Shown here piece by piece: positions 21,401 through 39,649 of a stretch of DNA of 64,000 bases. The notes beneath the pieces were generated by a model. The model saw only the letters and a program-made list of their open reading frames with translations, did no database searches and had not been told where the DNA came from. A program made the position numbers and the translations under genes. This DNA comes from Chitinophagales bacterium (GTDB lineage Bacteria > Bacteroidota > Bacteroidia > Chitinophagales > LD1). Positions within the stretch are counted from its first letter, which is position 1, and every line of letters starts with the position of its first letter. The stretch is from assembly GCA_016786765.1 (NCBI GenBank), contig JAEUUZ010000022.1, positions 34,443 to 98,442 on the forward strand. Direction: 5' to 3'.

Positions 21401-21566
21401 TTAATTTACTACTCCGTTTTGACCATTGTGGATAAATACTTTATTTAGAATAATTCTAAGCTTTACTAGAACCCTTTTAAACAGTGAATTTGGAGCAAAT
21501 GTTCTGTTAATTAACAAAGCCATAATATTTGTTTGAAATCGCTTGTTTTTTTGAAATTTTAGCAGT

Positions 21567-21574
21567 TATATTTG
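21567..21574 (+). promoter_or_regulatory. -7 promoter box (TATATTTG) of the act-cox operon
   Basis: Consensus match. It lies inside the TTG-extended ORF, which supports ATG 21595 or 21613 as the real start. Confidence 0.6.
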
Positions 21575-21594
21575 CCCCGTCTTGTGACAAATCC

Positions 21595-22878
21595 ATGACA
21601 ATTCAATTGAAGATGGGAAAAAAAATACACTGGCTATCAGCCAAAACACTTATTACTACTGCGTTTTCAGCACTTTTGTTGTTTGTTGCAACTTCATCTT
21701 ATGCAGCCGATGCTGCACAAGTGGCTGAAGGGAAAAAATTGTTTAAATCCAATTGTGCCAGCTGTCACAATCCTTTAACTGCGGGCACCGGGCCGGCTTT
21801 GAAGGGCGTAACAGCTCGTTGGGAAGCAGCAGGTGCTTACCAAGGCAAAAGCGGAAAAGAATGGTTGCACGCATGGATTAAAAACTATAACACACCGGTA
21901 GGAGCGAAGTATCCATACGCTGTGGAGATGAGTAATTACTCTCCTTCTGCCATGAACTTGTTCCCGGCATTGAAAGACGAGGACATCGACAAAATCTTGT
22001 TGTATGTCGATAATTCAGAAGTTACACCTACACCTCCTCCTGGTGGTCCAACTGCAGGTACTACAACTCAAGCACCTAAAGAAGAAAACAGCACAGTATT
22101 GTATCTGTTTGTTGCTCTTTTAGTGGTTCTAGCAGCCATCTTAGTTGGAGTTGCTCGTAAATTAGATAACGTAGTAGAAACAGCTAAAGGAAATGCACCT
22201 GCAGCTAGTGTTCCATTTTGGAAAAATACGAAATTCAGAGTAGCCGCATTATTGTTGTTCTTGGTATGGGGTGGTTTCTACTTAGCAGATAACGCAATTC
22301 GCTTGGGTCGTCAACAAGGGTATCAACCAACACAGCCAATTCGTTATAACCACGCATTGCACGCGGGTAAGCATAAAATCGACTGTCAGTATTGCCATAC
22401 TTCAGCAGCTAAAGGAAAAGCAGCAGGTATTCCTTCGTTGAATACTTGTATGAACTGTCACAAAAACGTTCAAAAAGGACCTGAGTACGGTACAGAAGAA
22501 ATCGCTAAAATCTACGATGCAGTAGGTTGGGATGTGAAAACACAGAAATATGTACGTCCTGCTCGTCCGGTACAATGGATTAGAATTCACAACTTGCCTG
22601 ATCACGTTTACTTCAATCACGCTCAACACGTTGTAGCGGGTAAAGTAGCTTGTCAAACTTGCCACGGTCCAATTCAAGAAATGAAAGAAGTATATCAATT
22701 CGCTCCACTTTCAATGGGATGGTGTGTAAATTGTCACCGTCAAACTGAGGTGCAGTTTGGAGGAAACAACTATTACAGTACTTACGAGAAACTACACGAG
22801 CAGTTGAAAAACAAAACTATCGACAAGGTTACTGTAGAGAAAATCGGAGGTACAGAGTGTGCTAAATGTCACTATTAA
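21595..22878 (+). CDS. actA: Alternative complex III multiheme cytochrome c subunit (monoheme + pentaheme)
   Basis: Six CxxCH motifs (CASCH, CQYCH, CMNCH, CQTCH, CVNCH, CAKCH); first gene of the canonical ACIII order. Confidence 0.92.
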   Translation: MTIQLKMGKKIHWLSAKTLITTAFSALLLFVATSSYAADAAQVAEGKKLFKSNCASCHNPLTAGTGPALKGVTARWEAAGAYQGKSGKEWLHAWIKNYNTPVGAKYPYAVEMSNYSPSAMNLFPALKDEDIDKILLYVDNSEVTPTPPPGGPTAGTTTQAPKEENSTVLYLFVALLVVLAAILVGVARKLDNVVETAKGNAPAASVPFWKNTKFRVAALLLFLVWGGFYLADNAIRLGRQQGYQPTQPIRYNHALHAGKHKIDCQYCHTSAAKGKAAGIPSLNTCMNCHKNVQKGPEYGTEEIAKIYDAVGWDVKTQKYVRPARPVQWIRIHNLPDHVYFNHAQHVVAGKVACQTCHGPIQEMKEVYQFAPLSMGWCVNCHRQTEVQFGGNNYYSTYEKLHEQLKNKTIDKVTVEKIGGTECAKCHY

Positions 22879-22945
22879 TCAATAGCAATTTAGAAATCAA
22901 TTAGTGCTTTAATTATAAAAAAGTCAGCGTTTAAAAAGATATAGC

Positions 22946-25900
22946 ATGGAAAAAAACTACTGGAAAGGAATCGAAGAGTTGGAGCAAAGCCCCGCTTTTG
23001 TTGCCCAGTTAGATAAGGAGTTCGCCAGCGAATTGCCTGCATTGGATTCTGTTGTAGAGCCTATCAGCACTACTGCTTCAACAAATCGTAGAGATTTCTT
23101 GAAAATGTTAGGCTTTAGTGTTACTGCTGCAGCTATTGCCACTGCATGTGAAATGCCTGTGCGTAAATCAATTCCTTATGCATTGAAACCGGAAGAAGTC
23201 ATTCCGGGTGTAGCTAACTATTATGCGTCTACATTCTATCAAGGTGGCGACTACGCTTCTGTGTTGGTTAAAACACGTGAGGGTCGTCCTATCAAGATTG
23301 AAGGCAATAAATTATCTGTTGTAACAAAAGGCGGAACATCGGCTAGAGCACAGGCATCTGTGTTGAGTTTGTATGATGGAGCGCGTTACACCGGTCCTAA
23401 AAAAGGAAAAGAAAGTATTTCTTGGGAAAAAGCGGATGCTGAAATCGGAGCAAAATTAAATGCTATCAGCGCTGCCGGAGGTAAAATTGTTTTATTCTCT
23501 TCTTCAGTAGCTTCTCCTTCTACAGCAGCAGCTATCGAAGGTTTTGTAGCGAAATATAAAGCAGAGCACTTAGTAAACGATGCAGTATCTTATGCAGGAA
23601 TTTTGGACGCTAACGAGAAATCGTTTGGTGTTCGTGCTATTCCTTCTTACAGCTTTGATAAGGCTTCTGTAATTGTAAGCTTAGGTTGCGATTTCTTGGG
23701 TACATGGTTATCGCCTGTAGAATTTGCAGCAGACTGGGCTAAAAACAGAAAAGTAAATGCCGAGAACAGAAAAATGTCTCGTCATATTCAAGTTGAATCT
23801 ACATTAACCCTTACAGGAGCTAGTGCCGATCAACGTATTGTTTGCAAACCAAACGAAGAATCATTACACGCAGTTGAATTGTTGAAAGCAGTTTCAGGCG
23901 CAGGTTCTTCTAACGAAAAAATAAACGCAGTAGCGAAAGAATTATTGGCAGCTAAAGGTTCTTCTTTAGTAGTTTCAGGTTCTAACGATGCGAATGTACA
24001 AGTGGTAGTGAACGCTATCAACAATACATTAGGCAACTACGGCACCACACTTTCTTTTGCGAATAGCTACAACACGAAAACCGGTTCTGATAAAGCATTA
24101 GCGTCATTGTTAGAAGGCTTATCAAACGGTTCTACTAAAGCTGTTCTTTTCTTCGATGCAAATCCATTATTAACGCATCCAATGGCCGATAAATTGGCTG
24201 AGGCTTTGAAAAAAGCGGAATTGAGTGTTTCGTTCAGTAACAGAAGAGACGAAACATCTGAGGCTTGTACTTATGTTTGTCCGGATTCTCACTGGTTAGA
24301 GTCTTGGAACGATGTGTCGCCTAAAAAAGGAATATACAATATCGCTCAACCTACTATCTCTAAATTATTCGATACACGTCAGGCACAAGATACATTGTTG
24401 AAATGGTCTGGTGTTGAAACTTCATACTACGATTTCATCCGTTCCAATTGGGAGCGTTCGGTATATCCGAATCAAAAAAGAACCGTTGGCTTTGACGGAT
24501 TCTGGGATATCGCAGTGCATGATGGTGAAGTAGTTACTTCAGGTGGTGGAGAAGCGTCATTCAAAGGTGGTGCTGAAGAGGCAGCATCTGCAGTAGCAGC
24601 AGCTTACAGCAAAGGTGGCGATGTTCAAATTAAATTATACGAATCAGTAGCAGCCGGAAACGGTTTCTGGGCTGATAATCCTTTCTTACAAGAATTACCG
24701 GATCCAATTACGAAAGTATGTTGGGATAACTACCTAAGTGTACCGGTGTCTTGGGCGAAGAAAAACGGTATCAAAAACGATTTGGAATTGAAAGATTACA
24801 CTATCGTTGAAGTTACTGCAAACGGAAAAACAATCAAGTTGCCTGCAGTTGCTGTTCCCGGTCAAGCAGAAGGCGCTTTCGGTATCGCAGTTGGATACGG
24901 AAAAACAGTAGTGAACCACGATGAATTGAAAATCGGTGCTAACGCTTATCCGTTCTTAGCTTTAGTGGGCGATAACTTAGTATCTACAACAACAGCTACT
25001 ATCAAAGTAACCGGAGAAACACAAAAATTAGCGATCACACAAACACACCACAACATTACCTTGAAAGGTTTGGGTGGAATTAAGAGACGTGGTGTAGTGA
25101 AAGAAACTACATTGCCGGAATATGTAAAAAGTGCATCTGCCGGAAATGAAGATCGCGAGAAGATCAAAGAAGAAATGGTTACCCTTTACTACGAGCACGA
25201 GAAATCAGGGCACCATTGGACATTAACAGTAGACTTGAACTCTTGTATTGGTTGTGGAGCTTGTGTTACAGCTTGTAACGTAGAAAACAACGTACCGGTG
25301 GTTGGTAAAGATCAAGTGATTCGTTCACGCGAGATGCACTGGTTGCGTATCGACCGTTATTTCACTTACACTGAAATGATTCAAGACGGAGCAGATACTT
25401 TAGCTCCGGAGAAATTGGATGTTGTGTTCCAACCGATGATGTGTCAGCATTGCGATAATGCACCATGCGAAAACGTTTGTCCGGTTGCAGCAACGAACCA
25501 CTCTTCAGAAGGTTTGAACCAAATGGCTTACAACAGATGTATCGGTACGCGTTATTGCGCCAACAACTGTCCGTATAAAGTTAGACGTTTCAACTGGTAC
25601 GATTATCAAGGAGCAGATAGCTTTAACGAGAAAGTTGGTAAAATGTGGGCAAACGAAGGAGCGCTTTCAGGAATTACGCGTGAACTTCATGAGCCGTTAA
25701 CAAGAATGGTATTGAACCCAGACGTAACGGTTCGTTCTAGAGGGGTTATCGAGAAATGTTCTTTCTGCGTCCAGAACTTGCAAGCCGCTAAGTTAACCGC
25801 TAAGAAAGAAAACCGACCATTGAAAGACGGAGAAGCGACTACAGCTTGTACTACAGCTTGTCCTACATCAGCATTGGTATTCGGAGATAGAAACGACAAA

Positions 25901-26020
25901 ACAAGTCAAGTATTCACGTCAATGAATGATGAGCGCGCATTCGGTGTTATCGAAGAGATTCACACTATGCCGAACGTATACTACTTGACCAAAGTTCGTA
26001 ACCGATCAGAAAAAGCATAA
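22946..26020 (+). CDS. actB: ACIII subunit B (Tat-exported molybdopterin-oxidoreductase-like domain + Fe-S domain)
   Basis: NRRDFLK Tat motif; Fe-S motifs CIGCGAC, CQHCDNAPC, CIGTRYC, CSFC. Confidence 0.93.
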   Translation: MEKNYWKGIEELEQSPAFVAQLDKEFASELPALDSVVEPISTTASTNRRDFLKMLGFSVTAAAIATACEMPVRKSIPYALKPEEVIPGVANYYASTFYQGGDYASVLVKTREGRPIKIEGNKLSVVTKGGTSARAQASVLSLYDGARYTGPKKGKESISWEKADAEIGAKLNAISAAGGKIVLFSSSVASPSTAAAIEGFVAKYKAEHLVNDAVSYAGILDANEKSFGVRAIPSYSFDKASVIVSLGCDFLGTWLSPVEFAADWAKNRKVNAENRKMSRHIQVESTLTLTGASADQRIVCKPNEESLHAVELLKAVSGAGSSNEKINAVAKELLAAKGSSLVVSGSNDANVQVVVNAINNTLGNYGTTLSFANSYNTKTGSDKALASLLEGLSNGSTKAVLFFDANPLLTHPMADKLAEALKKAELSVSFSNRRDETSEACTYVCPDSHWLESWNDVSPKKGIYNIAQPTISKLFDTRQAQDTLLKWSGVETSYYDFIRSNWERSVYPNQKRTVGFDGFWDIAVHDGEVVTSGGGEASFKGGAEEAASAVAAAYSKGGDVQIKLYESVAAGNGFWADNPFLQELPDPITKVCWDNYLSVPVSWAKKNGIKNDLELKDYTIVEVTANGKTIKLPAVAVPGQAEGAFGIAVGYGKTVVNHDELKIGANAYPFLALVGDNLVSTTTATIKVTGETQKLAITQTHHNITLKGLGGIKRRGVVKETTLPEYVKSASAGNEDREKIKEEMVTLYYEHEKSGHHWTLTVDLNSCIGCGACVTACNVENNVPVVGKDQVIRSREMHWLRIDRYFTYTEMIQDGADTLAPEKLDVVFQPMMCQHCDNAPCENVCPVAATNHSSEGLNQMAYNRCIGTRYCANNCPYKVRRFNWYDYQGADSFNEKVGKMWANEGALSGITRELHEPLTRMVLNPDVTVRSRGVIEKCSFCVQNLQAAKLTAKKENRPLKDGEATTACTTACPTSALVFGDRNDKTSQVFTSMNDERAFGVIEEIHTMPNVYYLTKVRNRSEKA

Positions 26021-26070
26021 TAAAGAAAAAGTAAGATTTAAAGAATCGCTAAACTTAAAAATAAGAAGAA

Positions 26071-27519
26071 ATGCACGCATACGAGTCAGACTTTCGGGAA
26101 CCCTTAATCAACGGTTTAGATAAGAACTATACAAAAATCACTGATGATATCGTAGGACCAACCGAGCGAACGTACAAAGGCTGGTGGCCGTTAATGATTA
26201 TCTTCGGAGCACTTGCCGGATTGTTTGTATTCTGTTTGGGATGGACAGTTTACTACGGTATTGGAGCTTGGGGATTGAACAAAACGGTAGACTGGGCTTG
26301 GGATATTACCAACTTCGTTTGGTGGATTGGTATCGGTCACGCAGGAACCTTGATCTCAGCAATCTTATTGTTGTTCCGTCAGCGTTTCCGTACAGGTATT
26401 AACCGTGCAGCTGAGGCGATGACTATCTTTGCCGTAATTTGTGCCGGTATGTTCCCGGTATTCCACATGGGTCGTGTATGGATGGCTTTCTTTATCTTCC
26501 CTTACCCAAATACAAGAGGTCCATTATGGGTGAACTTTAACTCACCATTGCTTTGGGACGTATTCGCAATCTCGACTTACTTCACCGTATCGTTGTTGTT
26601 CTGGTATTCAGGTTTGATGCCTGACTTCGCTACTATCCGTGATAGAGCAAACGGAAAAACTAGAAAATGGATATATAACATCCTTTCTTTCGGTTGGACA
26701 GGTACTGCTAAACAATGGCAACGTTTCGAGTCGTTATCATTGGTATTGGCAGGTTTGTCTACTCCATTGGTACTATCAGTTCACACGATCGTATCTTTTG
26801 ACTTCGCCACTTCAGTTATTCCTGGATGGCATACAACTATCTTCCCTCCATACTTCGTAGCCGGTGCGATCTTCTCTGGTTTCGCTATGGTGGAAACGTT
26901 GATGTTGATCGTAAGAAAGGTATTTAATTTGGAAGACTATATCACCGTGAACCACATCGAGTCGATGAACAAAATCATCGTATTAACTGGTTCTATCGTG
27001 GGTATCGCATATATCACAGAGATGTTCATCGCTTGGTATTCGGGTTACTTGTATGAGCAGTTTGCTTTCTACAACAGAGCATTAGGTAAATACTGGTGGG
27101 CTTATGCATGGATGATGAGCTGTAACGTATTATCTCCTCAATTGTATTGGTTCAAACCTTTCCGCAGAAATCTTTGGATTACGTTTATCCTATCGATTTT
27201 CGTAAACATTGGTATGTGGTTCGAGCGTTTCGTGATTATCGTTACTTCTTTGGCGGATGACTTCTTGCCTTCAAGCTGGAACTATTTCACACCAACATGG
27301 GTGGATATGGGTATCTATATCGGATCAATCGGATTGTTCATGACCTTGTTCTTGTTGTTCTGCCGTTTCTTCCCGGTAATCGCTATTGCCGAGGTGAAAT
27401 CAGTATTCAGAACTTCATCTGAGGTAGCTAAACGTGAGCGTGCCTTGAAAGACGAAAAACAAAACGGAGGCTTCGTAGGTCACACTACATTTGGAATATT
27501 AGACAAAGACGATAAATAA
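26071..27519 (+). CDS. actC: ACIII subunit C (NrfD/PsrC family quinol-binding membrane subunit)
   Basis: [50 protein letters not shown]. Confidence 0.94.
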
Positions 27520-27543
27520 TTTTAAACATTAATCATCACAATA

Positions 27544-28086
27544 ATGGCAACACAAAGCAACAATTACCTTTTAGGATTGTGGGATCATGAAGAAGTATTT
27601 CTTCACGCCATCGAGCATATTCGTCATGACGGAATTGAGATTTATGAGACGTTGACTCCATTCCCGGTTCACGGATTGGAGACTGCTCTAGGATACAGAG
27701 ATACACGTTTGCATACTGCAGGTTTCTTGTTTGGTGCAACCGGAACAACTTTCGCATTATCCATCATGAGCTGGGTGATGACCACCAACTATCCATTGAA
27801 CTTTGGTGGTAAGCCTAATTGGCCATTACCTTCTTTCATCCCGATTACCTTCGAGATGACGGTATTGTTCGCTGCGGTAGGTATGGTATTGACCTATTGT
27901 GTAAGAAACAAACTGTTCCCGGGTTATATCCCTCGAATTTTTGATAAAAGAACAACGGACGATCGTTTTGCTTTGGTATTCGATATCGAAGGAAAATCTG
28001 AGGCTGATGTGGAGCAATTGAAAGCGGTATTGAGCGGTCAAGGTGCTGTAGAAGTTAAGAAGCGAATTTTTTCTGAAAACGAATAA
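27544..28086 (+). CDS. actD: ACIII subunit D (DUF3341)
   Basis: TPFPVHGLETALG, FGGKP, FIPITFEMTVLFAA. Confidence 0.92.
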   Translation: MATQSNNYLLGLWDHEEVFLHAIEHIRHDGIEIYETLTPFPVHGLETALGYRDTRLHTAGFLFGATGTTFALSIMSWVMTTNYPLNFGGKPNWPLPSFIPITFEMTVLFAAVGMVLTYCVRNKLFPGYIPRIFDKRTTDDRFALVFDIEGKSEADVEQLKAVLSGQGAVEVKKRIFSENE

Positions 28087-28096
28087 TCATAGAGCA

Positions 28097-28798
28097 ATGA
28101 TGAAAAATTATTTATATCTATCTGTAATGGCTGTTTTAGTTGCGTTGGTAACTTCATCGTGCAGCCACGACATCAAAAAACCGGGCAAAATTTACATGCC
28201 GGATATGACTTATTCCAACGCTTTGGAACCGTATGCTCAAAGTGTAATTGTGAACGAAAGCGGTGATAGTGCTTCAGCAAGAAAGCCTGTACAAGGAACA
28301 ATTCCACGCGGATGGATTCCTATGGATGAGAACATCAGAAGCAATTCTGCCTACTTACTTTCGTACACGGCTAAAAATCACTTCACACACGATCAAGATA
28401 AATGGCAAGAAGAATACGATAGAGCAGGAGCTACATTGAAAAATCCTCTTCCGTTTACTGACGAGAACAAAGATGCCGGTAAGAAATTATACACTACACA
28501 TTGCGTGAACTGCCATGGCGCAGCCGGTGATGGAGCAGGTAACTTGATTACTTTGGAAGATGGTTCTGATGGTCCTTATACTGCCGTTCCACCAAGTTAT
28601 AAAACAAGATTAACAGAAATCAACGATGGAAATATCTTCTATTCTGTTAGCTACGGAAAAGGTATGATGGGCGGCTACGGTTACTCATTGAATGTAACAG
28701 AAAGATGGCAAGTAATTCAGTATATTAAAAGTTTAGCCGGTGTTGGCGCTACCGCTGTTGCTGCTAAAACAGATTCTACTGCTACTGCAAAAAAATAA
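28097..28798 (+). CDS. actE: ACIII subunit E, monoheme cytochrome c lipoprotein
   Basis: Lipobox SSC, YMPDM, CVNCH, ERWQVIQYIKSL. Confidence 0.9.
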   Translation: MMKNYLYLSVMAVLVALVTSSCSHDIKKPGKIYMPDMTYSNALEPYAQSVIVNESGDSASARKPVQGTIPRGWIPMDENIRSNSAYLLSYTAKNHFTHDQDKWQEEYDRAGATLKNPLPFTDENKDAGKKLYTTHCVNCHGAAGDGAGNLITLEDGSDGPYTAVPPSYKTRLTEINDGNIFYSVSYGKGMMGGYGYSLNVTERWQVIQYIKSLAGVGATAVAAKTDSTATAKK

Positions 28799-28837
28799 GA
28801 CAAATCAGATTCAAAAAAATAATTCAATTATAAAGCG

Positions 28838-30298
28838 ATGACAGAACGTTTTGAATTCACAGACGGAATAAAAAAGACACTTTACATACTCATGGTAGTA
28901 GGTTTAGTGGGATTGTTAGGATCCTTCATCTTGTACCCGGAAAATCAGCATAGCCGATTTTGGACTAACTTGTTAATCAACTCTTATTTCTTCACGGGAA
29001 TAGGCATATTCGGAATCTTCTTTGTAGCTGCCAACACATTGGGCTATAGCGGATGGATTTCTGTGGTGAAACGAGTGGTTATGTCATTGTCAGGTTTCGT
29101 TGTGGTAGGAGCGGTACTTACGCTTGTTATTGTTGGTGCGTCTTACGCTCATTTACATAACTTGTATGACCATTGGATGATTGAAGATCACCGAAAATTA
29201 CTTGACGTTACGAAACAAACATTCTACAATCCTACATTCTGGGCAGCACGTATGGTGCTTTATGTTGTATTATGGGTTGTGTTAGGTAACCGTGTGGTGA
29301 AAGCATTTTCTGCTAAAAACATGAACGACAAAGCAGTGTACAAATGGTCTAAATTATGGGCTGCACTTTGGATTTTAGTATTCGCTGTTACAGAATCGTT
29401 TGCAAGTTGGGATTATGTTATGTGCATCGATCCACATTGGTATTCTACTTTGTTCGGATGGTATAACTTCGCCAGCTACGGTTGTGCAGCATTTGCCTTC
29501 TCTATCTTGTTAGTATTGTTCTTGAAATCGAGAGGGTACTTAGCACAAGTAAACGAAAACCACATCCACGATTTAGGAAAATTCATGTTTGGATTTTCTA
29601 TCTTCTGGACCTACTTGTGGTTCTCTCAATTCATGTTGCAATGGTATGGTAACATGCCGGAGGATACTAACTATTGGGTGAAACGTTTCAACGTTCCTAC
29701 ATTGAAATTCACTATCTTCTTAGCTTTGGCATTGAACTTCTTGTTCCCATTGTTAGTGATTTTGAAAAGAGGTAACAAACGTAACTATAAAATCATTGGA
29801 TTTGCATCTGTAGTTATCATCTTCGGTCACTATTTAGATTTCTTCAACATGGTTGCTTTAGAACCTAATGCTGTTGAAACACATCATGCCGCAAAACACG
29901 AAGCTTCTATTCAAAAAGCTGACTATACTTTATTAGCAGAAAACAAAGGGGCTAAAGAAGCGGTTGCTGCTGCTGAAGCTGTTGCCACTACCGAAGCGGT
30001 TGCTGCTACGGATGCTGCTAAAGAAGAGGTTCACGCTACAGAGGCACATGTTGAACATGCTGCTGAAGCACATGGCGAGCACGCTACAGAAGCTCACGGA
30101 GAACACACTGAAGGACATGGTGAACATGCTGCAGTAACCTCTTATGTTGGTTTAGGTATATTTGAATTAATGGTATTAGCCGGTTTCGTTGGCGCATTCT
30201 TGTTCATGTTCTTCAACACGTTGAGCAAAGAACCATTAATCAACGAGAGCGATCCATATTTGAAAGAATCATTACGTCACCACGTAGAGTACGCTTAA
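28838..30298 (+). CDS. actF: ACIII subunit F, with a His/Ala/Glu-rich insertion
   Basis: WDYVMCIDPHWYSTLFGW, HIHDLGKFMFGFSIFWTYLWFSQFMLQWYGNMPE. Confidence 0.9.
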   Translation: MTERFEFTDGIKKTLYILMVVGLVGLLGSFILYPENQHSRFWTNLLINSYFFTGIGIFGIFFVAANTLGYSGWISVVKRVVMSLSGFVVVGAVLTLVIVGASYAHLHNLYDHWMIEDHRKLLDVTKQTFYNPTFWAARMVLYVVLWVVLGNRVVKAFSAKNMNDKAVYKWSKLWAALWILVFAVTESFASWDYVMCIDPHWYSTLFGWYNFASYGCAAFAFSILLVLFLKSRGYLAQVNENHIHDLGKFMFGFSIFWTYLWFSQFMLQWYGNMPEDTNYWVKRFNVPTLKFTIFLALALNFLFPLLVILKRGNKRNYKIIGFASVVIIFGHYLDFFNMVALEPNAVETHHAAKHEASIQKADYTLLAENKGAKEAVAAAEAVATTEAVAATDAAKEEVHATEAHVEHAAEAHGEHATEAHGEHTEGHGEHAAVTSYVGLGIFELMVLAGFVGAFLFMFFNTLSKEPLINESDPYLKESLRHHVEYA

Positions 30299-30367: not shown

Positions 30368-31906
30368 ATGACAACTTTATTAGTATTTGGTGCCTTAGTT
30401 TTAATGTATGTAATCTTGGTTTTAATTGGTAAAACCAACGAATTATCGAAATCATTATCGGGCAATCCGAACAGTTATGAGAAAGAAAGCAAGGTAAACG
30501 GCTATTTGATGCTTGCCTTCTTGGTTGGACTATTTTGGTCTATTGCTTTTCAATTAAAGCATTTAGCACCGTTGATGATTCCGAAAGCGGCTTCATATCA
30601 TGGCGAGGAGACCGATAGATTATTCTATGTAACATTGTTCTTCATGACCGTGGTGTTCATCTTAACGCAGATTGCTTTGTTCTACTTTGCATTCCGTTAT
30701 AACGAATCAAGAAACAAAAAGGCGTATTTCTATTCGCATAACAATAAATTAGAGGTAGTTTGGACTATTATTCCTTCTATCGTTCTCACCATTCTTGTTG
30801 TAATGGGTATGCGTGCTTGGTTTAAAATCTTCGATGTTGAAGCTCGCGATAAAAACATGCAAGTAGTTGAGGTTACTGCACAACAATTTAAATGGACATT
30901 ACGTTACCCTGGTACTGATGGTAAATTTGGCGAAAGAATTATTGATAAAGAGCACATTACACCAACCAACGAATTAGGTATCAACTGGAGTGATGCGAAA
31001 AGTCATGACGACTTCTTCTCTGAGCAATTGGTATTGATTAAAGATAAACCGGTATTAGTAAAATTAGGTGCGTTAGATGTAATTCACTCATTCTACTTGC
31101 CGCATTTCCGTGTGAAAATGGACTGTGTTCCGGGTTTACCTACACAATTCTATTTTACACCAAAATATTCTACTAAAGAAATGCAAGAGTACTTAAGTAC
31201 TTTACCTTGGTGGCAAGAAGTGAATCCTACAACAGGATTACCACGTTGGCAAACATTTAAATACGAATTGGCTTGTACTGAGATTTGTGGACGTTCTCAC
31301 TACGGTATGCAAAAAGAAGTGGTTGTATTGGCTAACGAAGCAGAATACAAAGAGTGGATGAAAACACAAACTTCTTACTACGAAACTACAGTAAAAGCTA
31401 CATTGGCAGAGAAGGCTACTGAAGAAGTTAAGCCTACAGCTGAAGTAAGTATTTTCAAAAAAACATTAGCAAGTGGCGTAGAGTTATTAGGCGCATTGTC
31501 TAACGGTATCGAATCAAAATTGATTTCATTTATCGAAGATAAAGGCAAACAAGTTGACAAAACCACTTGGTTTTCTTTCGATCGTTTGTTGTTTGAAACC
31601 GGTAAATCTACCTTGAAACCAGAGTCGCAAGAGCAAGTGAAAAATATGGCTGAGATCTTGAAAGCCTATCCTGCTGTTGAATTGAAAATTGGTGGTTATA
31701 CTGATAATTCTGGTGATGCCAAGAAAAACTTAGCCTTATCTGACGATAGAGCAAAATCGGTATTAGCTGAATTAGTAAAATTAGGCGTTGCCGATTCTCG
31801 TTTGAAAGCAGAAGGTTACGGAGATCAACATCCGGTGGCTGATAACGCTACAGAAGAAGGAAGAGCAAAGAACAGACGTATCGATGTACGTGTTACTAAA
31901 AAATAA
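30368..31906 (+). CDS. ctaC: Cytochrome c oxidase subunit II fused to a C-terminal OmpA-like domain
   Basis: CuA ligands DVIHSF and CTEICGRSHYGM. C-terminus LLFETGKS...KIGGYTDNSG...LSDDRA...GYGDQHP...NRRIDV, in the same frame with no stop. Confidence 0.92.
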   Translation: MTTLLVFGALVLMYVILVLIGKTNELSKSLSGNPNSYEKESKVNGYLMLAFLVGLFWSIAFQLKHLAPLMIPKAASYHGEETDRLFYVTLFFMTVVFILTQIALFYFAFRYNESRNKKAYFYSHNNKLEVVWTIIPSIVLTILVVMGMRAWFKIFDVEARDKNMQVVEVTAQQFKWTLRYPGTDGKFGERIIDKEHITPTNELGINWSDAKSHDDFFSEQLVLIKDKPVLVKLGALDVIHSFYLPHFRVKMDCVPGLPTQFYFTPKYSTKEMQEYLSTLPWWQEVNPTTGLPRWQTFKYELACTEICGRSHYGMQKEVVVLANEAEYKEWMKTQTSYYETTVKATLAEKATEEVKPTAEVSIFKKTLASGVELLGALSNGIESKLISFIEDKGKQVDKTTWFSFDRLLFETGKSTLKPESQEQVKNMAEILKAYPAVELKIGGYTDNSGDAKKNLALSDDRAKSVLAELVKLGVADSRLKAEGYGDQHPVADNATEEGRAKNRRIDVRVTKK

Positions 31907-31933: not shown

Positions 31934-33739
31934 ATGCATACTGCAACAGTTGACCACGGAGCACATTCAGCGCACGGACATGATGATCACGCTCATCATG
32001 AGTCGTCTTGGTTAGAGACTTATGTTTTCTGTCAAGATCACAAAACTATCGCTAAACAATTTTTGATTACGGGTATGTTTTGGGGAGTTGTCGGAGGATT
32101 ACTTTCAGTACTTTTCCGTTTGCAATTGGGATGGCCAAATGAAACGTTTCCGGTATTAGAAACATTTTTAGGGAAATGGGCTGAGGGCGGTAAAATCAGC
32201 AATGAGTTTTACTTGTCGTTGGTAACCATGCACGGAACCATCCTTGTATTCTTCGTATTAACAGGAGGTTTGTCGGGTACATTTTCTAACTTATTGATTC
32301 CTTATCAAATTGGAGCACGTGATATGGCTTCCGGCTTCATGAACATGTTGTCGTATTGGTTTTTCTTCACGGCATCTGTTATCATGTTTGCTTCTTTCTT
32401 CGTTCAAACCGGTGCAGCATCGGGAGGTTGGACGGCATATCCACCACTAAATGGTATGCGTTTGGAAGCGGTAAACAAAGGTTCAATGTTAGGGTTTGAC
32501 CTTTGGGCCTTATCTATGACTTTATTCGTTGTTTCTTCATTATTAGGTAGTTTGAACTATGTGGCTACTATCATGAACTTAAGAACAAAAGGAATGAACA
32601 TGTTGCGTTTACCATTAACCATTTGGGCGTTCTTGTTCACTGCTGTACTAGGTATCTTATCATTCCCTGCATTGTTAGCGGGTGTATCTTTATTGGAGTT
32701 CGATCGTTTATTAGGTACATCATTCTACTTGAATCAAATTGTAATTAACGGTAACTTATTAGATTACAAAGGTGGTTCACCGGTATTGTTCCAGCACTTA
32801 TTCTGGTTCTTAGGTCACCCGGAAGTATATATCATTATTCTTCCTGCGATGGGTATCGTATCAGAAGTATTATCAACACACGCGCGTAAGCCTATCTTCG
32901 GATATCGTGCGATGGTGGTGTCGATGATGGCTATCGTTATTATATCGTTCTTGGTTTGGGCCCACCACATGTTTGTTACCGGTTTGAACCCGAACTTAGC
33001 AGCCGTATTCGTATTGTTTACCTTGTTGATTGCCGTTCCTTCTGCCATTAAAGTATTCAACTGGATTGGTACCATTTGGAAAGGTAGTATTCGTTTAACA
33101 ACACCAATGTTGTTCGCTATCGGATTCGTATCGATGTTCATTTCGGGTGGTTTGACCGGTTTGATGTTGGGTAACTCTTCTATCGATATTCAATTGCACG
33201 ATACCTACTTCGTTGTAGCCCACTTCCACATTGTAATGGGGGTTGCCGGTTTCTTCGGTATGTTTGCAGGGGTGTATCACTGGTTCCCTCGTATGTACGG
33301 ACGTTACATGAACGAAACATTAGGTTACATTCACTTCTATATTACATTGATTGGAGGATATGCGATTTTCTTCCCAATGCACTTCATGACCGGTTTGCCA
33401 AGACGTTATTATTCATTCTCAAACTTCGATACATTCAGTTCGTTCGATAGTTTGGTAGTGTTTATCTCTGTTGCTGCTATTATCGTATTCTTAGCACAAA
33501 TCCTATTCATCGTTAACTTCTTCTACAGCATCTTCAAAGGAAGAAAATTAGAAGGCGAGTACAACAATCCATGGGGTGGAAATACATTAGAGTGGACTGC
33601 TCCTGTAGCAAGATTGCACGGTAACTGGCCTGGCGATATTCCTGCAGTACACCGTTGGCCATATGATTACTCTGTGAACGGACGTGAGTTTACTCCACAA
33701 ACTACGCCTTTAGCACCGGGTGAAGAAGAACATAAATAA
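31934..33739 (+). CDS. ctaD: Cytochrome c oxidase subunit I (A1 type)
   Basis: MHGT, WFLGHPEVY, WAHHM, HDTYFVVAHFH, PRRY. Confidence 0.97.
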   Translation: MHTATVDHGAHSAHGHDDHAHHESSWLETYVFCQDHKTIAKQFLITGMFWGVVGGLLSVLFRLQLGWPNETFPVLETFLGKWAEGGKISNEFYLSLVTMHGTILVFFVLTGGLSGTFSNLLIPYQIGARDMASGFMNMLSYWFFFTASVIMFASFFVQTGAASGGWTAYPPLNGMRLEAVNKGSMLGFDLWALSMTLFVVSSLLGSLNYVATIMNLRTKGMNMLRLPLTIWAFLFTAVLGILSFPALLAGVSLLEFDRLLGTSFYLNQIVINGNLLDYKGGSPVLFQHLFWFLGHPEVYIIILPAMGIVSEVLSTHARKPIFGYRAMVVSMMAIVIISFLVWAHHMFVTGLNPNLAAVFVLFTLLIAVPSAIKVFNWIGTIWKGSIRLTTPMLFAIGFVSMFISGGLTGLMLGNSSIDIQLHDTYFVVAHFHIVMGVAGFFGMFAGVYHWFPRMYGRYMNETLGYIHFYITLIGGYAIFFPMHFMTGLPRRYYSFSNFDTFSSFDSLVVFISVAAIIVFLAQILFIVNFFYSIFKGRKLEGEYNNPWGGNTLEWTAPVARLHGNWPGDIPAVHRWPYDYSVNGREFTPQTTPLAPGEEEHK

Positions 33740-33757: not shown

Positions 33758-34663
33758 GTGGCACAAACGCAAACATTAAAACTATCAAGTCTGATCTTGT
33801 TTAAACTTAGAGAGTATGCACTCTTAACTAAGTTTAGATTGAGTGTAACCGTAGTGTTATCGGGCTTGTTGGGCTATTTGTTTGGTGCAGAATACACGCA
33901 ATTCAGTTTTGGTGTTTTCTTCTTGTTCGTGTTATCGGGTTTATTGATTACTTGTTCGGCAAATGCCTTCAACGAAGTGATTGAGAAAGATATAGACGCG
34001 ATAATGGAGCGAACCAAAGATCGTCCGTTGCCCACAGGCCGTATGACCACTTCCGAAGCAATTATTGCAGCAGGAGTGATGGGTGTTTCAGGTTTGTTGA
34101 TTTTGTGGTTGAAATTTAGTTCGTTGGCTGCCATTATGGGTGCTATCTCTATTTTGAGTTATGCATTCATCTACACGCCTATGAAGAAAGTATCTTCAGC
34201 GGCAGTGTTTGTTGGCGCTATTCCCGGAGCATTACCACCGGCTATCGGTTATGTATGTGCAACGTATCCATCTACCTTCAACTATTTTATTGCTTCATTG
34301 CTGTTCTTTATACAGTTTTTGTGGCAGTTCCCGCATTTTTGGTCGATAGGTTGGTTGCGGTATGAAGATTACTTGAAGGCAGGCATTATGATGTTGCCTT
34401 CACAAAGCGGAAAAACAAGATTTAGTGCTATTCATTCATTGATTTATTGTGCGTTCTTATTGATTGTTTCGATGATGCCTTATACCTTTGGTATGGTAGG
34501 TATTTACGGAGCAAGTGTGATGTTGATTATGGGCGTTTTCTTTTTGTGGACTGCTACGCAGTTCTACAGAAATTGCGATGACGCCTCAGCGAAAAGAGTG
34601 TTATTGATGTCTTTTGCTTATCTGCCGATTGTACAATTGGCGATGGTGTTAGACAGAATATAA
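33758..34663 (+). CDS. ctaB: Protoheme IX farnesyltransferase (heme o synthase)
   Basis: NEVIEKDIDAIMERTKDRPLP, YTPMK, GAIPGALPP, WQFPHF. Confidence 0.95.
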   Translation: MAQTQTLKLSSLILFKLREYALLTKFRLSVTVVLSGLLGYLFGAEYTQFSFGVFFLFVLSGLLITCSANAFNEVIEKDIDAIMERTKDRPLPTGRMTTSEAIIAAGVMGVSGLLILWLKFSSLAAIMGAISILSYAFIYTPMKKVSSAAVFVGAIPGALPPAIGYVCATYPSTFNYFIASLLFFIQFLWQFPHFWSIGWLRYEDYLKAGIMMLPSQSGKTRFSAIHSLIYCAFLLIVSMMPYTFGMVGIYGASVMLIMGVFFLWTATQFYRNCDDASAKRVLLMSFAYLPIVQLAMVLDRI

Positions 34664-34734: not shown

Positions 34735-35358
34735 GTGGGAGAGGATAAATATTTAAACGAGTTAAAAAGTACTACCGAGTACACCGGGGTTCATCCGCAA
34801 AAGTTTGCACTCTGGCTTGGAATGGCAAGTATGACAATGTTCTTTGCAGCGTTAACCAGCGCAATGATTTTGAAGAAAGGCGATTTTCAATCGTGGGAGA
34901 ACTTTCGGTTGCCAACTGTATTTATGTACGGAACAGCAGCCATTGTTTTAGTAAGTGTGTTGATGCATGCCGCATTAGTCGCTTACCGAAAAGCAAGTTT
35001 TTCAACGTTTAGAGCCTTGCTCACAGCCGGTTTTTTGATGGCTATTGTGTTTCTCTACTGCCAATATATTGGTTGGAGTGCCATGAATGCCATCGGTAAA
35101 TCGATAACCGGAAATATCTCGGGACAGTTTGTGTTTTTGATTTCCTACTTACACGGATTTCATATTATGATCGGACTGATTGTGACCTTATTCTTCTTAT
35201 TCTTTGCGTTTCGCGACCGAAAAAATCCGGTATACGAAATGAACAACACCGTTAATCCAAAACGCTTGTTGCACATGGAATTACTGGTTTCGTTTTGGCA
35301 TTTCATCGATATCGTTTGGATATATTTGTATTTATTTTTTTACTTTAATTATCAATAA
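34735..35358 (+). CDS. Cytochrome c oxidase subunit III family protein (first copy)
   Basis: KFALWLGMASMTMFFA, LHGFH, FWHFIDIVWIYLY. Confidence 0.88.
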   Translation: MGEDKYLNELKSTTEYTGVHPQKFALWLGMASMTMFFAALTSAMILKKGDFQSWENFRLPTVFMYGTAAIVLVSVLMHAALVAYRKASFSTFRALLTAGFLMAIVFLYCQYIGWSAMNAIGKSITGNISGQFVFLISYLHGFHIMIGLIVTLFFLFFAFRDRKNPVYEMNNTVNPKRLLHMELLVSFWHFIDIVWIYLYLFFYFNYQ

Positions 35359-35372
35359 AAAGTTAGTAAAAC

Positions 35373-36062
35373 ATGGCAGCTACTTTAGAACACGGACATC
35401 ACGCTCAGCCTTCTGAGCAGGAATTATGGGCAGGGGGTCGTTCTCCGTTCAAAACCAGCTATGGTAAGGTGATGATGTGGTATTTCCTTATATCGGATAC
35501 CTTCACGTTTGCATCGTTCCTTATTGCCTATTCTGCATTGCGTTTCACGCAGTCTGAAGCATGGCCGAAAGCAGCAGAGGTATTCAAATCTATTCCTATC
35601 CACGGTTTAGATCACTACAACTTACCATTGGTATTCGTAAGTTTTATGACCTTCCTATTGATTGTGAGTTCTTACACCATGGTAAGAGCCGTACAAGAAG
35701 GGTATCGTATGAACAAAAGCGGAGTAATCAAATTCCTTATTCCAACATTAGTGTGTGGCGTATTGTTCTTAGGTTGCCAGTATTTAGAGTGGACACACTT
35801 AATCCACGATGGAATGACCGCTACAACCGCTAGCGAGGCTACAAAAGTTGTAAACTTCGGTCAGTTGTTCTTTATCATCACCGGTTTCCACGGATTGCAC
35901 GTATTCGGAGGGGTTGTATTGTTAACGTGGTTAACCGTAGCAACTTGGAACGGCACATTCGAAAAACGCGGACACTACGAAATGGTAGAGAAAATTGGTT
36001 TGTACTGGCACTTTGTTGACTTAGTTTGGGTGTATGTATTCTTAAGCTTCTATCTACTATAA
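35373..36062 (+). CDS. ctaE: Cytochrome c oxidase subunit III family protein (second copy)
   Basis: WYFLISDTFTF, TGFHGLHV, GLYWHFVDLVWV. Confidence 0.92.
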   Translation: MAATLEHGHHAQPSEQELWAGGRSPFKTSYGKVMMWYFLISDTFTFASFLIAYSALRFTQSEAWPKAAEVFKSIPIHGLDHYNLPLVFVSFMTFLLIVSSYTMVRAVQEGYRMNKSGVIKFLIPTLVCGVLFLGCQYLEWTHLIHDGMTATTASEATKVVNFGQLFFIITGFHGLHVFGGVVLLTWLTVATWNGTFEKRGHYEMVEKIGLYWHFVDLVWVYVFLSFYLL

Positions 36063-36108: not shown

Positions 36109-36486
36109 ATGGAAAATAATCACGAAATGCCGGAAGGCCACTTACACTGGAACGACCAAGAATATAGCGATAGCCGCAAAGATGTATTGAAAACCATTAT
36201 CATACTTTCTGTAGTTACCATTACAGAGGTAGGTATTGCCATTGTTTACGACCACTTCAACCCAACAGGCGGAAACTTCAAATGGGCCATTAACTTATTT
36301 ATGGTTGTAGCTTCAGTATTTAAAGTGTACTACATCATGGGTACCTTTATGCACTTGAAACACGAAACCAAAGGCTTTTTAATGACCGTATTTGTTCCGT
36401 TTACCTTCTTGATTTGGGCCATCATCGCCTTTACCTTAGAAGGACAATCGTGGGCACACATGCGCTCGTTGTTGAACGTATTTTAA
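36109..36486 (+). CDS. ctaF: Cytochrome c oxidase subunit IV family protein
   Basis: Three TM helices, KVYYIMGTFMHLKHE; last gene of the operon. Confidence 0.85.
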   Translation: MENNHEMPEGHLHWNDQEYSDSRKDVLKTIIILSVVTITEVGIAIVYDHFNPTGGNFKWAINLFMVVASVFKVYYIMGTFMHLKHETKGFLMTVFVPFTFLIWAIIAFTLEGQSWAHMRSLLNVF

Positions 36487-38089: not shown

Positions 38090-38620
38090 ATGTATAAGCT
38101 CTCGATGTATGCCATTGCCGTGTTGGCCATGTTGTTTGGTGTGTGGGTCCGCAACACATTGAATAAAAAAAGCGGTAATGCTTTGCTCAAAAAGTTACGG
38201 GCAGGAACCTTAGCTATTCAAGACATAATTCCTGAACTGATATGGTTAGTAGAATCTTGCGCAAAAGCGGAAGTAGATTTTGCCAATATTTCGCTTTTAA
38301 AAGCCGGCAAGAAAATACATACCCCACGTGGCGATTTTAATATCGAGTATATAGAATTACTAGAGAACAACGACTTAGTGATTGCCGTATTCGGCAACGA
38401 AGACGATACCGTGGGCACAGTGAATCATAAAAACACTGCACTCTATTTTTTTCTAATTCATTTTAATGCTGCGAACGATTGTTACGAAGTGAAGAGTGAA
38501 ATAAGCACCCAGTTGAGTGAAAAATTATTCAAAAAAGAATTTGCTCAAGCACTTCTTTTCGCTAAGCCATTGGACCGCAATGATGCGGAAGATGTGTTTG
38601 ATGAAGATGAAGAAGAGTAG
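38090..38620 (+). CDS. Hypothetical protein, N-terminal TM anchor and acidic tail
   Basis: 176-aa ORF with natural composition, located between repeat units 2 and 3. Confidence 0.65.
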   Translation: MYKLSMYAIAVLAMLFGVWVRNTLNKKSGNALLKKLRAGTLAIQDIIPELIWLVESCAKAEVDFANISLLKAGKKIHTPRGDFNIEYIELLENNDLVIAVFGNEDDTVGTVNHKNTALYFFLIHFNAANDCYEVKSEISTQLSEKLFKKEFAQALLFAKPLDRNDAEDVFDEDEEE

Positions 38621-39112: not shown

Positions 39113-39649
39113 ATGCCCAACAGAATCACATTGCAAGTCTTCTTGCTCACTACACTGCTTGTTATTGCCGGTTTAATTCTCCGCTATTTTGAAATAGGCT
39201 TAAGATTTATCGATGGAATCGATTTATATGGCAATATAGTTATGCGCTGTTCAGGCATTTATTTGTTGTATGATACTAGAGGTGTAACCCATGCTAAATT
39301 TTGGTATGCGATAGCAATAGCGATAGTAGTATTGGTATTAGGTATGCTGATAAAGATTATGCATTGGCCGGGAGCAAATCAAATGATCATGATTGGCTCG
39401 GGTAGTGTAATTATTTTGTATGGTATACGCTTTTTTCAAAAAAGCGAAAAGAATCATCTCGATGTACTCAAACTTCTTTTTGTATGGGTTTCCTTTGGTT
39501 ATTTTCTGCTATTGGCATTTCATATCCACACCGAAATTCCGATTATAGCCTCTCCCATCTTACTCCTTCTCTGTGTATTTGATTATATGTATATCCAATA
39601 CCAAAACGATACGCTTTTTTTTAAAAAGCTGCTGATGCTTGAAGCATAG
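39113..39649 (+). CDS. Small membrane protein with GldL N-terminal-like motif
   Basis: GMLIKIMHWPGANQMIMIG motif; about 6 TM segments. Confidence 0.7.
   Translation: MPNRITLQVFLLTTLLVIAGLILRYFEIGLRFIDGIDLYGNIVMRCSGIYLLYDTRGVTHAKFWYAIAIAIVVLVLGMLIKIMHWPGANQMIMIGSGSVIILYGIRFFQKSEKNHLDVLKLLFVWVSFGYFLLLAFHIHTEIPIIASPILLLLCVFDYMYIQYQNDTLFFKKLLMLEA

Follow-up and report, generated by a model that had tools for sequence, protein, structure and literature searches.

An OmpA-like domain at the end of cytochrome c oxidase subunit II in Chitinophagales: a candidate tether between a respiratory enzyme and the cell wall

Respiratory complexes are usually treated as freely diffusing proteins of the inner membrane. 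What role, then, can be assigned to a cytochrome c oxidase whose subunit II ends in a domain of the kind that binds peptidoglycan? The question is raised by a single gene, coxB-OmpA, in a 64,000-nucleotide stretch of DNA from a Chitinophagales bacterium (assembly GCA_016786765.1, contig JAEUUZ010000022.1, positions 34,443 to 98,442), which is referred to below as the window and supplies the coordinates given here. The source bacterium is uncultured and known from bioreactors and activated sludge; metagenome-assembled genomes named Chitinophagales bacterium contain a gene 96% identical to this one. An earlier note on this DNA had described the gene as a subunit II (COX2) whose CuA site is intact and which continues into a complete OmpA-like domain, a description borne out by Pfam, by motifs, by an AlphaFold2 (AF2) model and by Foldseek. 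It had also proposed that the oxidase could be held at the cell wall. We consider it probable that the OmpA-like module does tether the aa3 oxidase to the wall, non-covalently. Beyond the earlier note, the fusion is recurrent and polyphyletic, and the same module is present on the H+/Na+-pyrophosphatase of the same genome.

The fused protein

The gene is a single uninterrupted open reading frame (ORF) encoding 512 amino acids (aa). Its parts, including the transmembrane (TM) helices and the residues of interest, are the following.

30368..31906, + strand: coxB-OmpA, cytochrome c oxidase subunit II plus OmpA-like module, 512 aa and stop (ORF, translation, Pfam)
30368..30832, + strand: membrane part, aa 1-155, TM helices 2-30, 38-69, 77-112 and 127-155 (AF2, hydropathy, PF02790 at 69-145)
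30860..31372, + strand: periplasmic cupredoxin (CuA) domain, aa 165-335 (AF2 strands 165-321; Foldseek 5weh_B, 7atn_B, 2yev_B; PF00116)
31085..31087, + strand: CuA ligand His240 in DVIHSF, aa 237-242 (motif position; invariant column in 53 COX2 sequences)
31274..31309, + strand: CuA loop CTEICGRSHYGM, aa 303-314, with C303, E305, C307, H311 and M314 (motif position)
31373..31483, + strand: linker, aa 336-372, a helix at 337-353 and then a disordered part rich in Ala, Glu, Lys and Thr (predicted local distance difference test score, pLDDT, <50 at 352-360)
31484..31588, + strand: N-terminal extension typical of this module, aa 373-407, G.E.KL..FIED..K.VDKTTWFSFDR, helix 381-390 (conserved in 21 modules; AF2)
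31589..31876, + strand: OmpA-like core (PF00691), aa 408-503 (Pfam, PDB sequence matches, Foldseek, substitution rates)
31703..31705, + strand: Asp446 (GYTD), predicted contact to the diaminopimelate of the peptidoglycan stem peptide (invariant, module D107; aligns with GHTD of Capnocytophaga OmpA 5wtp)
31748..31750, + strand: Arg461 (LSDDRA), second predicted diaminopimelate contact (invariant, module R122; aligns with LSQNRA of 5wtp)

The domain assignments are well above the Pfam gathering scores: COX2_TM (PF02790) at aa 69-145 with 46.9 bits against 22.8, COX2 (PF00116) at aa 167-263 with 33.1 against 22, and OmpA (PF00691) at aa 408-503 with 80.8 against 27.2 (E 1e-22), the last match covering profile positions 1-98 of 98. 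The ligand set of the CuA site, H...CxExCGxxHxxM, is complete (H240, C303, E305, C307, H311, M314), and C303, C307, G308, H311, M314 and H240 are invariant in an alignment of 53 COX2 homologues. The window COX2 falls short of the cut-off of the NCBIfam CoxB equivalog TIGR02866 (114.1 against 147.7 bits), which is a matter of a scoring threshold and of lineage-specific insertions that lower the score, and not of any structural criterion. CxxCH is absent from the whole protein, as is any Pfam match to a cytochrome c, and the oxidase is not of the caa3 type; the OmpA-like domain does occupy, as had been noted earlier, the place C-terminal of the CuA domain at which caa3 oxidases carry their cytochrome c.

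The OmpA-like motifs GYTDNSG (443-449), LSDDRA (457-462) and NRRIDV (502-507) lie where the earlier note had put them. D446, R461 and N502-R504 are invariant among 21 aligned modules taken from COX2, pyrophosphatase and DUF937 proteins. The Asp and Arg residues are those that we take to contact diaminopimelate, by analogy with other OmpA-like domains (D271 of Acinetobacter baumannii OmpA, D241 of Escherichia coli OmpA).

Four TM helices are predicted in all, two of which precede the canonical COX2 hairpin formed by the last two. This additional N-terminal pair (30368-30574, aa 1-69) is kept in the aligned Chitinophagales homologues. By hydropathy, the loop at 108-128 follows the positive-inside rule and there is no hydrophobic segment beyond residue 157. 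The cupredoxin domain lies in the periplasm and has no further TM helix behind it, so that the OmpA-like domain is predicted to be periplasmic also.

The AF2 model of the full-length protein, built on 53 homologues, has a mean pLDDT of 84.9, with values of 85-95 across aa 400-512. After the four TM helices it has a beta-rich domain spanning 165-321, two helices (324-333 and 337-353), a disordered stretch (352-360) and finally a compact C-terminal alpha/beta domain, which stands apart from the oxidase part. Foldseek matched the COX2 part to subunit II of Rhodobacter (R. sphaeroides COX2, E 3e-14) and of Paracoccus, the entries including 5weh_B (E 5e-14), 7atn_B and 1ar1_B. The C-terminal part was matched to the C-terminal domain of Capnocytophaga OmpA (5wtp_C; root-mean-square deviation 1.7 Å over 103 columns), to that of OprF (5u1h_A) and to PA0833-PD (6jfw_A), all of them OmpA-like peptidoglycan-binding domains. 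A sequence search of the PDB agrees for the module (5wtp_A, E 1e-20; also 2k1s and 3td3).

That the fusion might be an artefact, by loss of a stop codon, a chimeric contig or the merging of two neighbouring genes in annotation, had to be considered, given that the window derives from a metagenome-assembled genome and that assemblers can cross between homologous modules, as contigs that cross-match at 31552-31587 recall. This is now hardly credible. A DNA contig from a different bioreactor sample matches 30874-31765 with zero differences. Two metatranscriptome contigs, at 31175-31587 and 31267-31585, cover the junction of CuA domain, linker and OmpA-like domain, which is therefore present in RNA. 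DNA and RNA contigs alike cross the region 31380-31470, singled out earlier as the place to look, and the fused frame is intact in dozens of independent genomes, including those of isolates. On the strength of the junction-crossing contigs and of this conservation an assembly or annotation artefact was rejected. The cross-matches at 31552-31587 had also raised the suspicion that the COX2 and pyrophosphatase modules of the genome had recently undergone gene conversion; this too was rejected, as the two are 70% identical in nucleotides and share no identical run longer than 14 nt, a distance that likewise speaks against assembly across modules.

Against the two closest genomes (dS 0.56-0.75) the ratio of nonsynonymous to synonymous substitution rates (dN/dS) is 0.06-0.08 for the module versus 0.035 for the TM and CuA part. 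At larger distances the module retains 85, 79, 73 and 71% aa identity, compared with 76, 71, 63 and 54% for the catalytic part. By these sequence comparisons the module is under purifying selection. Identity in the linker falls to 52-28% among relatives, and since the linker decays while the module stays conserved, the former appears spacer-like and the latter a functional domain. Taken together, these findings indicate that the fusion is real, transcribed and selected.

Recurrence of the fusion and sources of the module

The full-length fused gene is present in at least 48 of 301 species-representative genomes of Chitinophagales, in five families, designated here by number.

f1: 6 fused genomes
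f2: 1 fused genome
f4: 9 fused genomes
f7: 3 fused genomes
f23: 29 fused genomes

Family f23 corresponds to Saprospiraceae in the broad sense; exact look-ups led to Lewinella sp. 4G2 (WP_068217143.1), Portibacter marinus (WP_235297035.1) and Candidatus Vicinibacter. When the Lewinella protein was the query, 118 of the 120 top clusters showed the architecture. Type strains carrying it include Neolewinella antarctica, N. agarilytica, N. persica, N. lacunae, N. aurantiaca, N. litorea and N. xylanilytica as well as Lewinella aquimaris and L. marina. Across the phylum, 7 of 401 Bacteroidota genomes gave a match at E<=1e-90, all of them Chitinophagales, a strict threshold that would miss divergent fusions (one genome, G062, scored 1e-83 with the OmpA part left unaligned). 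In a library of representatives at 50% identity, full-length fusions occur in only a handful of clusters.

The earlier note had allowed that the architecture might already be catalogued, and so it is: entries from cultured Lewinella, Neolewinella and Portibacter stand in RefSeq and UniProt, though with names that are generic or wrong. Fused coxB genes are called "OmpA family protein", "flagellar motor protein MotB" or "cytochrome c oxidase subunit 2"; the misnamed records include coxB of Lewinella, Neolewinella, Portibacter and Ca. Vicinibacter (P0246, P0247, P0230, P0380, P0390). The misnaming at NCBI is probably due to the missed TIGR02866 cut-off. As a result, the aa3 oxidase of Saprospiraceae and other Chitinophagales can be overlooked in automated metabolic reconstructions. 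No paper on a fusion of COX2, oxidase subunit II or alternative complex III (ACIII) with OmpA was found in the literature searched, which left out most subscription journals, and the architecture has apparently escaped study.

Three kinds of OmpA domain are found on COX2: the window type, a Saprospiraceae type and an f7 type. The window type has a conserved N-terminal extension of ~45 aa and ends in NRRIDVRVTKK; its members are 70-76% identical among themselves. Between kinds, the cores share 42-48% identity, which does not exceed their identity to unrelated OmpA proteins encoded in the same genome and points to a convergent origin of the fusion, more than once. On a tree of the COX2 part (103 rows, some of the unfused database rows being fragments) the fused and unfused states require 17 changes, at least 14 of which are forced by well-supported branches. 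Complete unfused COX2 genes with their stop codons occur in the genus-mates G002 and G003 and in families f2, f4, f7 and f23.

Two further COX2 loci are of note. An unfused COX2 of 405 aa in family f7 (L049, G053:C10:52700-54700) ends in '...IADNKATEGKQ', matching the last OmpA residues of fused relatives, and appears from this sequence to be the remnant of an internal deletion, a footprint of loss. The COX2 match of G007, which is rated 100% complete and shares the family of the source, is broken by two TAA codons (G007:C6:30549-31601, - strand); these could reflect a pseudogene, a sequencing error or recoding.

The window-type module is found on three subtypes of COX2, distinguished by the CuA loops CxExC, CNQLC/CNKLC and CNKIC. 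The module tree conflicts with the COX2 tree, and monophyly of the modules found on the f4-type COX2 clade is rejected by an approximately unbiased (AU) test (p 0.005), for a group that was defined after the tree had been seen and with both trees coming from quick searches. The conflict suggests that modules have been exchanged, cassette-like, between COX2 lineages. A single ancient fusion followed only by losses is not favoured, given the mutual distance of the OmpA types and the discordance of the trees.

A second host of the window module type was found in the source genome (G000) outside the window. This is a membrane pyrophosphatase of 899 aa (G000:C6:4808-7507, - strand, equivalent to L011:4808-7507; H_PPase E 2e-259), which scores above the cut-off of the NCBIfam model for sodium-translocating pyrophosphatase and is of the K+-dependent type by its GNTTAAIGKG motif. 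Its C-terminus is 61% identical to the window module over 169 aa, the extension included. Among the 16 OmpA-domain ORFs of G000, only COX2 and the pyrophosphatase carry this type; most of the others start with a stretch resembling a signal peptide and have the look of outer-membrane or periplasmic proteins. Cultured Cytophagales often carry such a fusion of pyrophosphatase and module (Runella slithyformis, Spirosoma linguale, Arcicella, Rudanella, Flectobacillus), and those of Runella, Spirosoma, Arcicella and Rudanella are named plainly 'sodium-translocating pyrophosphatase'.

Elsewhere the window module forms the end of proteins of ~400-480 aa with an N-terminal DUF937 domain. In 35 of 38 cluster representatives these carriers have an internal TM helix 70-130 residues ahead of the module and no signal peptide, so that the module is typically the periplasmic end of an inner-membrane protein. 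Such a home fits a transfer onto COX2 and pyrophosphatase, because the C-termini of both face the periplasm; that of the pyrophosphatase we take to do so from the solved Vigna and Thermotoga enzymes. The module type was also seen at the end of P0209 (513 aa), whose Pfam matches to PAS and GerE (LuxR-type helix-turn-helix) form an odd combination for a periplasmic module, and at the end of 'OmpA family' proteins of ~765 aa from Cloacimonadota (P0124/P0127, 764-766 aa).

Operon context and the proposed tether

A complete operon for ACIII (21529..30298, + strand) lies directly upstream of coxB-OmpA, and the remaining oxidase genes follow it.

21529-22878, + strand: ActA, multihaem (Pfam cytochrome c families)
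22946-26020, + strand: ActB (Pfam Molybdopterin/Fer4)
26071-27519, + strand: ActC (Pfam NrfD)
27544-28086, + strand: ActD (Pfam ActD, E 4e-55)
28097-28798, + strand: ActE (Pfam Cytochrom_C)
28838-30298, + strand: ActF, 486 aa (by position and size only; no Pfam match)
31934-33739, + strand: coxA (Pfam COX1, E 1e-139), starting 28 bp downstream of coxB-OmpA
33758-34663, + strand: haem O synthase, cyoE (Pfam UbiA)
34735-35358 and 35373-36062, + strand: two COX3-like genes (Pfam COX3 twice)
36109-36486, + strand: COX4_pro (Pfam COX4_pro)

The same act-cox order and the same gene sizes surround the fused coxB in the lineages of G027, G183 and G068, where ActD and COX1 were confirmed by Pfam. The source genome, 100% complete in 66 contigs, contains no second COX2 and only one A-type COX1; the fused protein is therefore the sole subunit II of the sole aa3 oxidase, and the idea of a redundant fused copy beside a normal paralogue was rejected. 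The other terminal oxidase of the genome is of the cbb3 type. Its FixO/CcoO part was found in a 726-aa frame adjoining a distant COX1 (CcoN) match (L064, G000:C46:90302-92395, - strand), and judging from this frame CcoN and CcoO may be fused there.

What, then, could the module do on this oxidase? A genuine COX2 is joined to a complete periplasmic OmpA-like domain with its Asp/Arg pair, and the gene follows an ACIII operon; for these reasons tethering of the oxidase, and of any ACIII-aa3 supercomplex, to the wall is in our view the most economical reading. The CuA domain of subunit II would accept electrons from ACIII, and the module of ~150 residues would reach the sacculus on a flexible and variable spacer of ~37 residues. 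There Asp446 and Arg461 would hold the stem peptide of peptidoglycan without a covalent bond, in the manner of the domains of OmpA, Pal, MotB and YiaD; binding of the module to the cell wall is quite likely. The oxidase, with whatever ACIII-aa3 supercomplex is formed, would thus be stapled to the wall. A module that normally belongs to bitopic inner-membrane DUF937 proteins would have been taken up, cassette-like, by two primary ion pumps, COX2 with its oxidase and the membrane pyrophosphatase. Candidate payoffs are that proton pumps diffuse less in the membrane plane or stay in fixed places, and that inner membrane and wall are coupled mechanically by way of abundant, stable membrane proteins.

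Several points weigh against this explanation. Peptidoglycan binding and the retention of the domain in mature subunit II are predictions, and a spacer of ~37 residues would have to bridge, on top of the CuA domain, the gap to the wall in these bacteria. The fusion is dispensable over evolutionary time, as is evident from the 17 changes of state, from G002 and G003, which are without it, and from the bare remnant in G053. In the photosystem I (PSI) of Gloeobacter, discussed below, the corresponding extension was not resolved by electron cryo-microscopy and its anchoring role is still a hypothesis (PMC11565984).

It may also be asked whether the same binding serves a purpose unconnected with respiration. 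COX2 and pyrophosphatase would then be mere anchors, chosen as abundant and stable proteins of the inner membrane, and the module would replace or supplement a protein made of DUF937, TM helix and module; selection would act on the cohesion of membrane and wall, through periplasm width or resistance to plasmolysis, and not on the placement of respiration. The usual host of the module is indeed a bitopic inner-membrane protein with no bioenergetic role, and the module is easily lost. G000 is without a DUF937 carrier and has the module on COX2 and pyrophosphatase only, two unrelated enzymes whose common trait is a periplasmic C-terminus, and modules appear to have been swapped between COX2 lineages, co-divergence being rejected by the AU test (p 0.005). 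Yet three OmpA types have converged specifically on COX2, always in an act-cox operon, as though the oxidase itself mattered, and Gloeobacter PSI provides a third bioenergetic host. We give this reading a clearly lower probability than the tether as such, but on the purpose of the binding the evidence points both ways: the convergence on COX2 favours the fixing of pumps in place, the usual home of the module in DUF937 proteins and its easy loss favour the staple. Less likely still is that the domain is simply tolerated, being cleaved off, non-binding, or bound to something else than peptidoglycan, for instance a partner in the periplasm or outer membrane, with little consequence for the oxidase. 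Its frequent loss among close relatives would agree with this, and some OmpA-like domains have altered pockets, e.g., PA0833 (6jfw), one of the top structural matches. The strong purifying selection on the module with its invariant binding residues, the retention of the fusion in essentially all Lewinella and Neolewinella, and the independent fusions with different OmpA types all argue otherwise.

Returning to the tether, its connection to motility that the earlier note had thought possible, with pumps placed near motors of the type IX secretion system (T9SS) or of gliding, found no support: the fusion comes and goes among close relatives, and the same module sits on the pyrophosphatase of Spirosomataceae that are mostly non-gliding (Runella, Spirosoma). 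About 7 kb downstream in the window, a 178-aa ORF (39113-39649, + strand) has a weak match to the N-terminus of GldL (PF22827, 29.6 bits with a cut-off of 24), beside a 176-aa ORF (38090-38620, + strand) with no Pfam match; the GldL_N match is not regarded as evidence for a link to T9SS or gliding.

A broader reading, which we offer as a speculation with the odds against it, is that wall anchoring of primary ion pumps is a recurrent, selected design, by which proton or sodium pumps would be held to form immobile bioenergetic patches, or local sources of ion-motive force at particular places in the envelope, over and above the stapling of the inner membrane. The cases behind it are the aa3 oxidase in Chitinophagales, with its three OmpA types, the membrane pyrophosphatase in Bacteroidota and Burkholderiales, and PSI in Gloeobacter. 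If wall binding is true, the fusion implies a physical coupling of ion pumps to the sacculus in some bacteria, and the spatial organization of bacterial bioenergetic complexes, with its importance, would become directly testable. Cultured carriers exist for COX2 (Lewinella, Neolewinella, Portibacter) and for pyrophosphatase (Runella, Spirosoma), with fused and unfused sister lineages as natural controls. The significance of the fusion would be the greater if wall anchoring of ion pumps proves to organize bacterial bioenergetics.

Comparison with known systems

Subunit II of the caa3 oxidase of Thermus thermophilus (PDB 2YEV chain B) also has an extra globular domain C-terminal to the periplasmic CuA domain, and the COX2 parts of the two proteins can be aligned (Foldseek rank 9). 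In caa3, however, the extra domain is a cytochrome c that feeds CuA, whereas here it is a non-redox, OmpA-like, predicted wall binder. With respect to the respiratory chain, the closest system is the ACIII-aa3 supercomplex that one paper reports for Flavobacterium johnsoniae (PMC8552683). The phylum is the same, Bacteroidota, and in the window the act genes stand directly ahead of the cox genes; in contrast to the present case, most Bacteroidota COX2 proteins are unfused. No Bacteroidota COX2 chain was among the PDB sequence matches.

Two bioenergetic proteins have been reported with a comparable C-terminus. PsaB of Gloeobacter violaceus (PDB 7F4V chain aB), in function the nearest precedent, belongs to the core of a bioenergetic complex of the cytoplasmic membrane and likewise ends in an OmpA-like domain; our PDB sequence match covers residues 754-864 of its 872 aa (E 2e-11). 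This extension of 155 aa has been seen by mass spectrometry and was hypothesized to anchor PSI to peptidoglycan (PMC11565984). The host differs from ours in being PSI, and the arrangement is confined to Gloeobacter species. Membrane pyrophosphatases fused to OmpA-like domains share with the oxidase that a primary ion pump with a periplasmic C-terminus bears such a domain, on a different host enzyme. The example in Paucibacter was described in a 2024 PeerJ review as having a "role to be elucidated" (PMC11210485), which does not name the Bacteroidota cases of Runella, Spirosoma and Arcicella.

The MotB and PomB stators, TssL and YiaD share the general plan: they are anchored in the inner membrane and dock on peptidoglycan with a C-terminal OmpA-like domain carried by a flexible linker in the periplasm. 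NCBIfam and PDB similarities of the module extend to YiaD, MotD, MotB, PomB and TssL, those to MotB and MotD being limited to the OmpA-like part and below the cut-offs. A stator of the MotB/PomB type was rejected as the identity of the fused protein, for its N-terminal 340 aa are COX2, its neighbours are act and cox genes, and a MotA/ExbB-type partner, a plug helix and a channel Asp are all absent. In those systems anchoring serves the generation of force or the assembly of a machine, whereas the membrane part here is the subunit of a redox enzyme. The fused subunit II is thus a combination of known parts, a COX2 and an OmpA-like tether of inner-membrane type, and not a new kind of system.

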